Origin: a bacterium
GTDB lineage: Bacteria; Sysuimicrobiota; Sysuimicrobiia; Sysuimicrobiales; Humicultoraceae
Reading direction: 5' to 3'
Length of the DNA: 64,000 nt
Assembly (NCBI GenBank): GCA_041497675.1
Contig: JBGQGY010000001.1
Span: 13,727-77,726, forward strand
Both the position numbers and the translations under genes were made by a program. Positions 4,768 to 29,831 of the stretch are shown piece by piece. How positions within the stretch are numbered: position 1 is the first letter of the stretch; every line of letters begins with the position of its first letter. A model generated the notes under the pieces. The model was not told where the DNA came from, did no database searches, and saw nothing but the letters and a program-made list of their open reading frames with translations.

Positions 4768-5849
4768 AGATCGTCCTTCTCGAAGGTGACCAGACCGGGC
4801 AGGAACTGCTCCGGGATGCCATCCGGGTGCTCGACCCCGAGGTGGTGGGTCTGCCGTTTGTGTTTGACCGGTTCGACCTGAGCCTCGACAACCGGCGCCG
4901 CACGAAGAATGCGGTCGTCCGCGAAGCCGCAGACGCGTTGCGGGAAGCGCGCTACGGGATCAAGGCGGCCACCACCACTCCCGAAGGCGCGGGCGACGTG
5001 GGCAGCCCCAATGCGCTGCTCCGTGAATGGATCGATGCGACGGTGATCCTCCGGACGGGACGCCGGATCCCGGGTGTCCGGCCGGTGGCCGGTGTCGTGG
5101 CGCCGATCGCGGTGGTGCGCATGGGCGTGGGTGACGCCTACAACGCCCGCGAGTGGCGGGAAGGCGCCGGCGACGATGAGGTGGCGTACCGCACTACCGC
5201 CGTGACCCGCCGTCACTGCCGGGCCGTGGCGGAGTTTTCGTTCCGGCACGCGCGCCAACTGGGCGCCAAGGTGTTTGGAGGGCCCAAATACACTGTCAGC
5301 CCCGTCTACGAAGGCATGCTCAAGGAAGAAGTGGATGCTGCCGCGGCGCGTCACCCGGAGATAGCCTACGATCCCCAGTTGATCGACGCGGTGTATGCTC
5401 TGCTGTTGCAGTCCACGGGCGAGGCCCTCGTGATCCCCGCCCTGAATCGTGATGGCGATACCCTGAGCGACTTTGTGTTGCAGATGTTCGGCAGCATCGC
5501 GGGGGCTGAGTCGGTGATCCTCAGCGTTGACAAAGAGAACAATCCGAAGGTCGTGCTGGCCGAGGCGCCGCACGGCACCGCCCCCAAGTTGTTCGGTAAG
5601 AACGTCGCCAACCCGATGGCCATGATCCTGGCGTGTGCGGCTGTCACGTCCTACCTGCCGCAGGCGGCCGCGGCCTCCGTGTCGCGTGCCATCTACGAGT
5701 CGACCTTTGAGGCGGTTCAGGGCGGCGTGCGTACGCTGGATCTCGGGGGCGACGCGACGACGACGGAATTCACCGACGAAGTCATCCGCCGGCTCCGTCT
5801 GAAGCTGGACGTCTGGCGCAGCCTCGGCCGGACTAGCCCCACCTCCTGA
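4752..5849 (+). CDS. Isocitrate dehydrogenase (NADP), subfamily II (eukaryote-like) of the isocitrate/isopropylmalate dehydrogenase family
   Basis: Motif matches to type II IDH: EGDQTGQEL (EGDEMT), DLSLDNRRRTKN (DLGIENRDAT), GIKAATTTPE (KCATITPDE), RMGVGDAY, ALNRDGDTLSDFV (NYDGDVQSD), EAPHGTAP (EAAHGTVTRH). Confidence 0.65.
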   Translation: MDGAVKIVLLEGDQTGQELLRDAIRVLDPEVVGLPFVFDRFDLSLDNRRRTKNAVVREAADALREARYGIKAATTTPEGAGDVGSPNALLREWIDATVILRTGRRIPGVRPVAGVVAPIAVVRMGVGDAYNAREWREGAGDDEVAYRTTAVTRRHCRAVAEFSFRHARQLGAKVFGGPKYTVSPVYEGMLKEEVDAAAARHPEIAYDPQLIDAVYALLLQSTGEALVIPALNRDGDTLSDFVLQMFGSIAGAESVILSVDKENNPKVVLAEAPHGTAPKLFGKNVANPMAMILACAAVTSYLPQAAAASVSRAIYESTFEAVQGGVRTLDLGGDATTTEFTDEVIRRLRLKLDVWRSLGRTSPTS

Positions 5850-26557: not shown

Positions 26558-26632
26558 GGGCGCTTAGCTCAGGGGTAGAGCACCATCCTGACGCGATGGG
26601 GGTCGCAGGTTCAAATCCTGCAGCGCCCACCA
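26558..26632 (+). tRNA. tRNA-Val (anticodon GAC) with encoded CCA
   Basis: Manual cloverleaf fold gives acceptor GGGCGCT/AGCGCCC, D stem GCTC/GAGC, anticodon stem CCATC/GATGG with loop CUGACGC, and T loop TTCAAAT. Confidence 0.95.
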
Positions 26633-26670: not shown

Positions 26671-27156
26671 TCAAAGAAACGACCGTGCGCGAAACGGTCG
26701 TTCTTTTGTCGTCAGTCCATTCTCCAGGTACGGGATGAGCGATCCACGAGCCCTTCCTCGGGTAGATTCTAGAACATCGTATTGGTGTTTGCGGCGGTTT
26801 CCGGGACTTCCTTCGAGGACGTCCCAATGCTCGACAATCTTGCCGTTCTCCAGTCGGAAGATGTCGATTACAGCCATCCCGCGGTCCCCTGGTTGTCGCA
26901 CGAAATGGCTGTGCTGAACGACTAGGTCCCCTTCCGCGACCTGCCGCTTGATCGTGACCTGCAACTGGGGGAACGCGCCTGCAAAGCCGCGTACGACCTG
27001 GATGAACGGCTCCGGTCCATCGCCTGCTTGGGGATTGTGCTGCCGGTAGTACGGGCCGATGTACCGCTTCACCGCATCTTCCGGCCGCCCTTGGTTGATG
27101 GCGAGTTCGCAAAACTCACGGACGATCCGCTTGTTCGCGTCTAGCTGGCCATTCAT
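26671..27156 (-). CDS. SnoaL-like / NTF2-like (ester cyclase-like) family protein
   Basis: The N-terminal NKRIVREF..., PQLQVTI and ENGKIVEHWDV patterns are typical of SnoaL_2 proteins. Confidence 0.55.
   Translation of the reverse strand: MNGQLDANKRIVREFCELAINQGRPEDAVKRYIGPYYRQHNPQAGDGPEPFIQVVRGFAGAFPQLQVTIKRQVAEGDLVVQHSHFVRQPGDRGMAVIDIFRLENGKIVEHWDVLEGSPGNRRKHQYDVLESTRGRARGSLIPYLENGLTTKERPFRARSFL
26673..26707. terminator. Bidirectional intrinsic terminator (perfect 13-bp stem AAAGAAACGACCG / CGGTCGTTTCTTT)
   Basis: The hairpin lies between the tRNA-Val 3' end and the 3' end of the convergent minus-strand gene. A/T tracts flank both sides. Confidence 0.7.
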
Positions 27157-27317: not shown

Positions 27318-27354
27318 TTAGGGCGTCCTAATCAATCTCGTTAGGAGGTCCTCA
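27318..27354 (+). promoter_or_regulatory. Two copies of a 14-bp palindromic motif, TTAGGGCGTCCTAA and TTAGGAGGTCCTCA, 23 bp apart upstream of feoB (candidate metalloregulator operator)
   Basis: Direct repeat of a TTAGGnnGTCCTnA inverted-repeat motif. Half-sites resemble DtxR/IdeR TTAGG...CCTAA. The region is locally low-GC. Confidence 0.35.
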
Positions 27355-27375: not shown

Positions 27376-29358
27376 ATGTCAGGTTGTCACGATGTCGCGA
27401 CTGTTGAGGCGGGCACGAATTCCCGGTTGCCGAGCGTTGCGCTGCTCGGGCACCACAACGTCGGCAAGTCCGTTTTATTTCAGCGCCTGACCGGCCGATT
27501 TGCCTCCGTCGCCAACTACCCGGGAACCACGGTGGAGGTCGCCCAGGGCACGTCGCGCGCGTTGGGCGGCATTCCGGTATTTGACACCCCAGGCGTCCTG
27601 GGGTTTCCCGCACGCTCAGAGGACGAGCAGGCCACGACTCGGGTGCTCCTTTTCGAGCCGCTGAAGGCGATCGTGCAGGTCGGCGACGCGAAGAACCTCC
27701 GGCGCACGCTGCTGCTGACCGTCCAACTCGCCGAGATGGGCGTGCCGTTGGTCCTGGCGTTAAACATGATGGACGAAGCCGGAGCGCGCGGCGTGCGCGT
27801 GGAGAGCGAGCGCTTGAGTCAGCGGCTCGGCCTTCCCGTGCTGCAGACTGTCGCCATCACCGGCACCGGCGTGGACGCGCTCGCCGGCGCGGTGTGTGAG
27901 GTAGGCCTGCCGCGGCTGCACCTGACCTACGGTGCGGAGATCGAGGACGCGCTGGCCGAGATCGGCCCGCAACTGCCGCCTGCGCCGATCTCGCCGCGGG
28001 CACTGGCGCTGCTGTGGCTGAGCCGCGACCACGTGATCGAGTCGTGGGCGGCGGAGCGGCTCGACAACGAGGTGTACCGGCGTCTCGTGGCGCGCCGCGA
28101 GGCGCTGCAGCTGTCCTTCACGGGGCCGATTGCCGAAGTCATCCAGCGCGCCCGTCTCGCTTGGGTCGCCGCGGTTGCCGCCTCGGTCATCACAGCCGAG
28201 GGAAACTGGTGGACCGGTCTGGGAGCGACGCTGGGACGGCTGGCCGCGCACCCGCTGTGGGGGCTGCCGATTCTTGCCGGTGTGTTGTACGGGGTGTACT
28301 GGTTCGTGGGCGTCTTCGGCGCCGGGACCCTTGTTGGTCTCCTGGAGGAACAGCTCTTCGGCGAGATCCTCAACCCTCGCATCACGGCGTGGGTGGGCCG
28401 GGTCATTCCGATCAAGGTGGCTGCCGACTTCTTGGTCGGCGAGTACGGGCTCTGGACGATGGGCATGACCTATGCCCTGGCGCTCATCCTGCCCATCGTC
28501 ACGACGTTCTTCGCCGTGTTCGGTGTGCTTGAGGACTCGGGATACCTACCCCGCCTCGCTGTGCTGAGCAACCGGATCTTTCGTGTGCTCGGTCTCAACG
28601 GGAAGGCGGTGCTTCCCATGGTGCTCGGCCTGGGCTGCGTGACCATGGCCACCCTCACGACGAGAATCCTGGAGAGCCGCCGTGACCGTCTCCTGGTGAT
28701 CCTGCTGCTCGCGCTGGCTGTGCCCTGTTCGGCGCAGCTCGGCGTGGTGATGGGCATGCTGGCCAGCATCTCGCTCGCAGCGACGATGATCTGGGGTGGC
28801 GTGATTGGGCTCGTGCTGCTGGCGGTGGGATGGCTCGCCGCGCGCTTGGTGCCAGGGGAGCGGTCGTTTCTCGTGCTGGAGTTGCCGCCGCTGCGACGCC
28901 CGTCGCTCGCCGGGGTGGCGGCAAAGACCGCTGCGCGGCTTGAGTGGTATCTGAAGGAAGCCTTGCCGCTCTTTCTCGCCGGCTCGGCGCTCGTGTTCCT
29001 CATGGATCGGGTGGGAGCGCTGCCGGCGCTCACCCGGGCCGCGGAGCCGCTCGTCACCGGATGGTTGGGGCTTCCTCCTCAGGCGAGCGCGGCATTCCTG
29101 ATGGGCTTCCTGCGGCGCGACTTCGGGGCCACCGGCCTGTTCGCCCTAGAGTCGCAGGGACTGCTGACGCCGCTGCAGGTCGTGGTGGCGATGGTCACCA
29201 TCACCTTGTTCATCCCCTGTTTCGCCAGCGTGCTGATCATCGCCAAGGAGCGCGGGTCCCGGACCGCGGCGGCGGTGACGGCGCTGGTCTTTCCGCTGGC
29301 GTTCGTGGTGGGTGGCGTGCTGTACAGAATCCTCGGCGCGCTGGGGTGGGGCTCGTGA
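27376..29358 (+). CDS. feoB: Ferrous iron transport protein B (FeoB): G-domain plus polytopic membrane domain
   Basis: G1 GHHNVGKS, G2-G4 (DTPG, NMMDEA) and a gate-motif membrane domain are present. Confidence 0.95.
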   Translation: MSGCHDVATVEAGTNSRLPSVALLGHHNVGKSVLFQRLTGRFASVANYPGTTVEVAQGTSRALGGIPVFDTPGVLGFPARSEDEQATTRVLLFEPLKAIVQVGDAKNLRRTLLLTVQLAEMGVPLVLALNMMDEAGARGVRVESERLSQRLGLPVLQTVAITGTGVDALAGAVCEVGLPRLHLTYGAEIEDALAEIGPQLPPAPISPRALALLWLSRDHVIESWAAERLDNEVYRRLVARREALQLSFTGPIAEVIQRARLAWVAAVAASVITAEGNWWTGLGATLGRLAAHPLWGLPILAGVLYGVYWFVGVFGAGTLVGLLEEQLFGEILNPRITAWVGRVIPIKVAADFLVGEYGLWTMGMTYALALILPIVTTFFAVFGVLEDSGYLPRLAVLSNRIFRVLGLNGKAVLPMVLGLGCVTMATLTTRILESRRDRLLVILLLALAVPCSAQLGVVMGMLASISLAATMIWGGVIGLVLLAVGWLAARLVPGERSFLVLELPPLRRPSLAGVAAKTAARLEWYLKEALPLFLAGSALVFLMDRVGALPALTRAAEPLVTGWLGLPPQASAAFLMGFLRRDFGATGLFALESQGLLTPLQVVVAMVTITLFIPCFASVLIIAKERGSRTAAAVTALVFPLAFVVGGVLYRILGALGWGS

Positions 29359-29369
29359 GGGTACCCCTG

Positions 29370-29831
29370 ATGACTTGCTCGATGTGCGGCCATGTCTACG
29401 ATCCAGCCGACGCGCAGGCTTGCGCTGCGTGCCCGCTGCACACAGGCTGCGCAATGACGTGCTGCCCGGCGTGCGGGTACACCGCGGTCGACCCCAACCG
29501 GTCCACGCTCGCGCGTTGGTTCGCCGGCATCTTCGGCGGGCACACGATTGTGGGTCGGACCGGTACGCACGGGACGGAGTGGGACGGTCCGCGGCCCGAC
29601 CTCATGCTTGCCGACCTATCTCCCGGCGACGAAGCTAGCGTGGTGGACTTCGAGGGGCCCGCCGCGGATAGGCGCGCGCAGTTGCAGGCGTATGGGCTCG
29701 TGCCGGGCCGCCGGCTGCGCGTCGTTCAACAGCGACCGGTTACGGTACTGCTGGTGGATCACACCGAGCTTGCCATTGAAGGGGATCTGGCCCGAGGTAT
29801 CAGGGTGCAACGGCCGGCACTAACCGCGTGA
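29370..29831 (+). CDS. feoA: FeoA-domain protein with N-terminal Cys-rich (8 Cys) putative metal-binding extension
   Basis: The C-terminal about 75 aa has an SH3-like FeoA pattern (LSPGDEASVVDF...LQAYGLVPGRRLRVVQQRPVTVLLVDHTELAIE). The N-terminus reads CSMCGHVYDPADAQACAACPLHTGCAMTCCPAC. Confidence 0.7.
   Translation: MTCSMCGHVYDPADAQACAACPLHTGCAMTCCPACGYTAVDPNRSTLARWFAGIFGGHTIVGRTGTHGTEWDGPRPDLMLADLSPGDEASVVDFEGPAADRRAQLQAYGLVPGRRLRVVQQRPVTVLLVDHTELAIEGDLARGIRVQRPALTA

Follow-up and report, generated by a model that had tools for sequence, protein, structure and literature searches.

This analysis concerns feoB and the gene that follows it in a stretch of 64,000 nucleotides (nt) of bacterial DNA (Sysuimicrobiota; contig JBGQGY010000001.1 of assembly GCA_041497675.1), the whole of which is called here the window. 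Positions are those of the window, and the features described lie on its + strand unless stated otherwise. The first gene, feoB (27376..29358), encodes a protein of 660 amino acids (aa) that comprises a G-domain, a helical domain, and two membrane domains with Gate motifs. Against the NCBIfam equivalog model TIGR00437, its score is 358.9 bits (cut-off 315.65), and Pfam recognizes in it FeoB_N, FeoB_Cyto, two copies of Gate, and FeoB_C. The GTPase motifs GxxNVGKS, DTPG, and NMMD show no variation, and the cysteines C421, C451, and C615 are conserved as well. The second gene (29370..29831), referred to here as cys-feoA, is defined by the list of open reading frames (ORFs) and by its homologues; it encodes 153 aa, composed of a cysteine-rich module, a linker, and FeoA. 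An earlier note, made from the sequence alone, had placed feoB first and a 153-aa FeoA-type protein after it, and the ORFs at 27376-29358 and 29370-29831 bear this out. The best explanation is that the two genes constitute a ferrous-iron uptake operon, the second product of which joins two Feo accessory functions in one chain.

The three parts of the cys-feoA product are readily told apart. The C-terminal FeoA SH3-like domain (residues 80-147; 29607..29810) matches Pfam FeoA, PF04023 (E = 1.3e-9, 38.4 bits, cut-off 23). In an AlphaFold model of the full-length protein it has a predicted local distance difference test (pLDDT) score of about 96, and in a Foldseek search the modelled FeoA part superposes on 2k5f and 3e19 (E about 4e-6); the top matches are FeoA structures, with TM(target) values as high as 0.88. 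Before it lies a variable linker (residues 59-79; 29544..29606), recognized by low pLDDT (below 50 for residues 56-71), by variation in length, and by its position at the point where other genomes split the gene in two. The linker in the window is not basic. The protein begins with MTCSMCGHVYDPADAQACAACPLHTGCAMTCCPACGYTAVDPNRSTLARWFAGIFGGH..., the start of the Cys module (residues 1-58; 29370..29543), which consists of a rubredoxin/zinc-ribbon-like knot of eight cysteines (residues 3-36) and a conserved helix (residues 46-54). The spacing of the cysteines, C3-x2-C6-x11-C18-x2-C21-x5-C27-x3-C31-C32-x2-C35, is exactly that first noted.

A Cys-rich stretch ahead of a well-known domain might of course be an artefact of annotation. 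If the real start of feoA were the internal Met79, the stretch would be an untranslated spacer, and there is indeed an ATG at residue 79, just ahead of the FeoA domain. However, no ribosome-binding site is obvious ahead of Met79, while a good one, the Shine-Dalgarno-like GAGGG at 29357..29361, overlaps the feoB stop and precedes the ATG at 29370 by 8 nt. That ATG lies 11 nt past the feoB stop (TGA, 29356-29358) and in a different frame. An alternative start, the in-frame GTG at 29355, overlaps the feoB stop, and the Cys region is included either way. Independent gene callers arrive at the identical 153-aa product, from the same start, on eight metagenome contigs.

The homologues bear on this as well. 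A search of 5.8 billion proteins with the 153-aa protein gave 73 homologues, mostly 140-190 aa in length, with at least 95% query coverage and 40-50% identity. All eight cysteines are invariant in an alignment of 14 members (42-78% identity); in one of 210 members they are 92-100% conserved, as are G7, P22, P33, and G36, the lower values for cysteine coming from N-terminally truncated entries. Linker indels keep the frame even as the length of the linker varies. A profile of residues 1-58, run against 1.84 billion cluster representatives (50% identity), retrieved 925 clusters at E ≤ 1e-3, of which 224 reach E ≤ 1e-10. The Cys pattern is thus conserved far beyond chance. That eight cysteines should be kept at 40-50% identity across phyla argues against an untranslated spacer, and so do the in-frame indels and the 37 loci in which the module is a stop-terminated ORF of its own. 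Cysteine conservation and the split genes together exclude the artefact, to which we attach practically no probability; the Cys-rich segment is genuinely translated as a conserved domain and does not stem from a misplaced start codon. Two objections foreseen in the earlier note thereby fall away: no better internal start was found, and the cysteines are not lost in orthologues.

Where the module occurs is as telling as its conservation. A first scan, with each species represented by a single genome, identified 39 loci, exclusively in metagenome-assembled genomes (MAGs) of Chloroflexota (Anaerolineales and Chloroflexia, including a member of Roseiflexaceae), Actinomycetota (Gaiellales, Thermoleophilia, Solirubrobacterales, and Conexibacteraceae), and, in one case, Armatimonadota. 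In every locus with upstream DNA (n = 38), a FeoB 57-66% identical to that of the window is encoded directly before the module, and the called feoB stop lies 5-47 nt before it in all of them except L012, where feoB has a premature in-frame stop. In 14 of the first-scan loci, a stop codon closes the Cys part after 57-76 aa, and an ORF of its own encodes FeoA. The junctions between the two resemble those of genuinely coupled genes: ...cagaggagcTGAggaaATG in L029, L032, and L036, an overlap of ATGA in L031 and of TAATG in L035, and TAAggcATG in L013; gaggagcTGAggaaATG is likewise a junction of this kind.

A further 80 loci came from a second scan, in which metagenomes were searched with a FeoB profile; the six-frame translations of these loci were then examined with hidden Markov models (HMMs) for the module and for the FeoA domain. 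Wherever FeoB was at least 57% identical to the window's, the module again began within about 50 nt of the end of feoB, and over both scans the FeoBs that precede a module share 57-67% identity with that of the window. The pooled scans give 81 loci with a module, always in that position. It is fused to FeoA in 39 of the 81; a separate module gene is followed by feoA in 35 and by a gene for a DtxR-like protein with a FeoA-type SH3 domain in two (L108 and L116); and in the remaining five, the arrangement is cut by the end of the contig. The separate genes (37 loci) encode 57-80 aa. Much the same division is seen among the best 145 new cluster representatives from the profile search, where 82 are stand-alone proteins of no more than 110 aa and 61 carry FeoA in the same chain. 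Two long contigs bear out the arrangement: in L124, feoB is followed by a 70-aa module, a 102-aa FeoA, and mntP, and in L125 the order is dtxR, feoB, a 69-aa module, feoA.

The module is therefore autonomous, being either a free small protein or a part of FeoA, while its position right after feoB is constant. The earlier note had proposed that Feo loci be surveyed for a fused, metal-binding FeoA. The fusion does recur, but the module is no speciality of FeoA, since in about half of the systems it stands free. The constant position makes it better described as a FeoB-associated, FeoC-like third component, which in the window happens to be fused to FeoA; it looks like a new third component of the feoB-feoA iron-uptake system.

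The gene order, to which the earlier note had also drawn attention as non-canonical, is a different matter. Where FeoB is 54-56% identical to the window's, feoA lies 0-130 nt downstream and there is no module; FeoBs 47-53% identical fall into three groups, having downstream the module plus a longer FeoA, or a DtxR-like gene, or nothing relevant. The order of feoB and then feoA is conserved and no local rearrangement, but the order by itself is not special, for a sister clade of FeoB has feoB-feoA without the module. Reversal characterizes a larger clade, only part of which has the added module.

The survey turned up several variants. In a more distant FeoB clade, a gene for a DtxR-like protein of 220-236 aa with a FeoA-type SH3 domain at its end comes directly after feoB (L103, L110, L113, L114, and L120) or after the Cys module (L108 and L116); it stands in for plain FeoA. 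The DtxR-like protein of L110 opens with a CxxC motif (MKCPNCNF...). In P0109 (259 aa), the C-terminus of FeoB reads through into the Cys module and FeoA, the result either of a frameshifted assembly or of a rare triple fusion. P0211 (1119 aa), a repetitive Cys/His protein, was rejected as a spurious profile match. Directly after feoB-module-feoA in L124 lies a gene (L124:5616-6173) for an MntP manganese exporter (PF02659), a hint that some module-bearing systems may handle manganese besides iron.

What sort of domain is this? No Pfam or NCBIfam model reaches its cut-off on the Cys module, whether in the window protein or in 25 members of the family; there are only weak matches to zinc-ribbon models (among them DZR, Zn_ribbon_3, and UPF0547) and to Rubredoxin. 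Pfam Rubredoxin (PF00301) scores 11.6 bits against a cut-off of 23, and NCBIfam NF045768 scores 11.3 bits against 90. A profile of the module does better when compared with all sequences in the PDB. The best matches are the short rubredoxins 6nw0 and 6rxn (E = 9e-6, 28.5 bits), in an alignment that pairs CxxCG-[HY]-x-[YF]-D-P with the first rubredoxin knuckle and C-C-P-x-C-G with the second, and hhalign aligns the module with the sequence of 6rxn over 37 columns (95.8% probability, E = 7e-9). Both knuckles, C3-x2-C6-G7 and C32-P33-x-C35-G36, are 90-100% conserved. C18, C21, and C27 fall in the inter-knuckle loop of rubredoxin in this alignment, or replace it. The AlphaFold model of the N-terminus has short strands and beta-hairpins around both knuckles and a helix at residues 46-54. 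In that helix, the sequence S45-x-L-[AV]-R-[LW] (S45-x-L-A-R-W in the window) is kept in fused and stand-alone forms alike; the helix may be a docking element.

Judged by these comparisons, the N-terminal 58 residues are an autonomous eight-Cys module of the rubredoxin/zinc-ribbon type. The earlier note's idea of a zinc-ribbon-type domain fits the profile search, hhalign, and the weak Pfam matches, all of which point to a metal-binding fold of the zinc-ribbon/rubredoxin type. C3, C6, C32, and C35 would form an outer site equivalent to the iron ligands of rubredoxin, and C18, C21, C27, and C31 (CxxCPx4Cx3C), an insertion, could form a second, inner site.

A metal site need not sense anything, and this is the substance of the main rival to the function we propose below. 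The eight cysteines might bind two Zn2+ ions solely to fold a docking domain that recruits FeoA, or the module itself, to FeoB; there would be no sensing, and fusion would merely raise the local concentration of FeoA. The weak matches to many zinc-ribbon families equal or beat that to Pfam Rubredoxin, such knuckle motifs are common in structural zinc sites, and the tight linkage to feoB needs binding only. However, the nearest solved structures are of iron-binding rubredoxins, and the match to them includes signature residues other than cysteine. There exist, moreover, two other, unrelated Cys-rich Feo accessories, one of which, FeoC, reportedly has an oxygen-sensitive Fe-S cluster (PMC8749426). 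That cluster argues that cysteine chemistry is functional in Feo systems. A purely structural pair of zinc ions is the alternative to be taken most seriously, but we consider it unlikely.

FeoB itself may offer a partner for the module. An N-terminal extension ahead of the G1 motif carries Cys4-His5 (MSGCHD; 27385..27390), and an x-C-H-x tag of this kind is found in 41 of 72 non-redundant FeoBs from systems with the module but in none of 33 from systems without it (Fisher p = 9e-10, with no correction for phylogeny). The pair lies on the cytoplasmic G-domain of transporters that have a Cys-rich partner (41/72) and may be a metal-binding tag. More distant FeoBs start with MHxH or are His-rich at the N-terminus (MHEHHKK, MHMHEHKHKH).

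The tag lends itself to another idea, that the module is an iron acceptor or chaperone, which would collect Fe2+ on its exit at the cytoplasmic side of FeoB and deliver it elsewhere, so keeping down the toxicity of free Fe2+. The hand-off might involve the N-terminal Cys-His of FeoB, given that the CH tag is restricted to module-bearing systems. A rubredoxin-type Fe(Cys)4 site is plausible, and the module would be made along with FeoB through translational coupling. But Cys4 sites are usually too tight and inert for transfer, the neighbourhoods examined offer no link to genes for Fe-S assembly or iron storage, and, FeoA being a regulator of FeoB, fusion to it speaks more for control than for trafficking. 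A role as chaperone therefore seems to us improbable.

Upstream of feoB lie two candidate operators of the DtxR/IdeR type: a perfect palindrome, TTAGGGCGTCCTAA (27318..27331), 45-58 nt before the feoB ATG, and a second copy with one mismatch, TTAGGAGGTCCTCA (27341..27354), 23 bp downstream of the first. They are the only matches to TTAGG-N4-CCTAA (TTAGGNNNNCCTAA; at most one mismatch) in the 64 kb, where 0.19 are expected. The mycobacterial IdeR box, TTAGGTTAGGCTAACCTAA, contains the 14-mer. Among 119 loci, six sites lie within 250 nt upstream of feoB (26.7 kb in all), as against ten in the other 696 kb, five of the ten being at the start of a DtxR-family gene that precedes feoB. Tandem pairs are found also in L027 (3780/3804, a spacing of 24 bp) and L110 (1430/1444), and other sites in L030 (3932), L002 (2930), and L005 (3124). 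TTAGG-N4-CCTAA, often in tandem, thus marks feo promoters, whether the operon opens with feoB itself or with a DtxR-family gene. In at least 26 loci, a regulator gene lies directly upstream of feoB: a Fur-family gene ends just before feoB in at least 17 loci of the Anaerolineales type (PF01475, 87.7 bits), and a DtxR-family gene (PF01325, PF02742, and FeoA) lies just before it in at least nine others.

The surroundings of the operon in the window are less eventful. A gap of 219 nt separates feoB from a divergent SnoaL-like gene (26671-27156, - strand), beyond which lies tRNA-Val (GAC) (26558-26632); SnoaL and feoB are similarly arranged in a metagenome contig, L040. Apart from cys-feoA, no FeoA-like ORF was found in the gap or elsewhere in the 64-kb window, and tblastn searches of the window for a Fur/DtxR gene or a second FeoA gave only chance matches, the best of them, at about 16.8 kb, lying within unrelated ORFs. 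Scans for promoters and terminators found nothing, and an Rfam scan of the leader found tRNA-Val only and no riboswitch.

Regulation of another sort has to be considered for the module itself. A role in binding nucleic acid was once proposed for FeoC, and one could imagine that a zinc-ribbon module, together with arginine-rich linkers, binds DNA or RNA so as to control feo expression. Source annotations lean this way: fused members are labelled FeoA, while stand-alone members are called RpoP or DUF1610-type/'RNA-binding Zn-ribbon'. Linkers are very basic in many homologues. But the names are generic COG transfers, the linker of the window protein is not basic, and a dedicated Fur or DtxR is already encoded beside most such operons. 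We regard a nucleic-acid-binding regulator as very improbable indeed. The basic character is nonetheless widespread: separate feoA products have a strongly arginine-rich N-terminal extension (e.g., MRKRRPRRIWWRRFFGRGRSTGRG...; L025:6182-6634, L125:~4990-5443, L029:6218-6511, and others), and many fused forms, though not that of the window, have equally basic linkers. At L125:4987-5484, the public gene call is a minus-strand ORF of 165 aa without a Pfam match, but our own HMM recognizes a clear FeoA domain on the plus strand (E = 7e-27); the call is an annotation error that hides feoA.

The function we favor, at slightly better than an even chance, is that of a metal-binding, FeoC-like accessory of FeoB, responsive to iron or redox state and tethered in the window to FeoA. 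According to this model, the module would bind metal in the cytoplasm, Fe or Zn at the knuckle site, with the inner site possibly holding a second ion or an Fe-S cluster. It would dock on FeoB, possibly through the conserved helix, near the N-terminal Cys-His tag, and so make the interaction between FeoA and FeoB dependent on the iron or redox state of the cytoplasm. GTPase-controlled import of Fe2+, or the stability of FeoB, would then depend on it as well, a role like that proposed for the [4Fe-4S] FeoC of Gammaproteobacteria. With the module tethered to FeoA, both accessory functions would reach FeoB together. Transcription of feo is probably repressed by iron through the two IdeR-like palindromes upstream of feoB. 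In favor of this model are the conservation and autonomy of the module, its constant tie to feoB, its rubredoxin-like fold, the Fur and DtxR genes and palindromes near feoB, the co-occurring CH tag, and the precedent of FeoC with its shared CxxCPx4C spacing.

A number of observations weigh against a sensing, FeoC-like accessory. Pfam Rubredoxin matches the module only at E = 0.09-0.3, several zinc-ribbon models score equally, and knuckles of the CxxCG/CPxCG type are just as characteristic of zinc ribbons with a purely structural role. The assignment of ligands to two sites comes from sequence alignment, not geometry; pLDDT is moderate at the N-terminus (57-82), and the module modelled alone (57.8) is too uncertain for a fold search. 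The association with the CH tag ignores shared ancestry, so that the tag may simply mark a clade, and 31 of the 72 module-bearing systems are without it. No gene for a Fur or DtxR regulator was found in the 64-kb window. Lastly, homology between the module and FeoC was considered and rejected: hhalign gives it a probability of 5.8%, and the likeness is confined to the level of the motif.

A bolder form of the model may be entertained, although we think it rather doubtful. The module would be an unrecognised third Feo subunit, in which a rubredoxin-type iron site and the Cys-His tag of FeoB form an intermolecular site for sensing or hand-off that gates the transporter. If this were true, cytoplasmic Fe2+ would feed back on its own import at the level of protein, and the module would be an independently evolved counterpart of FeoC in its role in Gammaproteobacteria. 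For the most widespread bacterial importer of Fe2+, the control of FeoB and the actual roles of FeoA and FeoC are long-standing questions. The module family, unannotated but widespread in two large phyla, has features that recommend it in this regard. It has a recognisable fold and eight invariant candidate ligands, and its natural fusion to FeoA implies that module, FeoA, and FeoB act together. The protein is compact and soluble (58 or 153 aa), suited to spectroscopy and to reconstitution with FeoB. Annotations, too, stand to be corrected, both the RpoP/DUF1610-type labels of the stand-alone members and, in at least one record, the omission of the adjacent feoA.

No description of the module was found in the literature searched (on FeoA with a zinc ribbon, rubredoxin-like proteins, Chloroflexi, and operon architecture), but it invites comparison with several known proteins. 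FeoC (PF09012; E. coli YhgG, 1xn7; Klebsiella FeoC-NFeoB, 4awx) is likewise a small cytoplasmic protein encoded right after feoB, and the spacing CxxCPx4C is common to both (CKSCPEGKAC in E. coli, CAACPLHTGC in the window). FeoC has a winged-helix fold. In E. coli, a [4Fe-4S] cluster is reported to bind to the motif Cx4Cx2Cx5C, without which Feo does not function fully (PMC8749426), and FeoC of Salmonella shields FeoB from proteolysis (PMC8749426; PMC9047314). But FeoC has four cysteines, located in the wing, whereas the module has eight in a two-knuckle fold and no helix-turn-helix in the model. FeoC follows a feoA-feoB pair, whereas here feoA is last or fused, and it is found mainly in Gammaproteobacteria, as against the Chloroflexota and Actinomycetota of the module. 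PF09012 gives no match at E ≤ 1 to the window protein or to 25 members of the family.

Nor, in the same proteins, does PF12669 give a match at E ≤ 1. This family resembles the module in being encoded by a short Cys-rich ORF right after feoB, in genomes without feoC, and in being fused sometimes to a Feo protein (PMC8749426); it has been proposed as a FeoC-like element responsive to metal or redox state (PMC8749426). It differs in its Cx3-5Cx2-3Cx6-8C motif, its membrane helix, its occurrence mainly in Firmicutes and Bacteroidetes, and its fusion to FeoB. The module, with eight cysteines in another spacing, located before the helix, has no predicted transmembrane segment and fuses to FeoA. The module family would thus be a third independent Cys-rich element after feoB, besides the unrelated FeoC and PF12669, which bears on the question raised by the authors of the mBio article (PMC8749426), whether the Cys-rich elements after feoB are convergent sensors of metal or redox state.

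The short rubredoxin of D. desulfuricans (6rxn/6nw0) is the nearest relation in fold, aligned over 37-41 columns that include all four iron ligands. It differs in that its hydrophobic inter-knuckle loop is replaced in the module by the second four-Cys motif, and in that rubredoxin is an electron carrier while the module is found in the context of a transporter accessory. With respect to gene order, the closest parallel is in Methanococcus voltae, where feoB (Mvol_0975), an ORF for a Cys-rich 'ferredoxin-like' protein (Mvol_0976), and feoA (Mvol_0977) are all strongly co-induced (PMC9431491). The order is that of the split module systems, but the published account gives Mvol_0976 a CX2CX2C ferredoxin motif and regards it as found only in M. 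voltae (PMC9431491). The module has no CX2CX2C, and going by that account the two proteins differ. Fusion of Feo accessory parts is known also, from FeoA-FeoB fusions in, for example, Bacteroides (PMC8749426), though the partner of FeoA here is the Cys module and not FeoB. Finally, FeoI of Stenotrophomonas is another extra small protein encoded after feoB, and it binds FeoB (PMC9047314), but it is a single-pass membrane protein, for which cysteines are not mentioned in that account.

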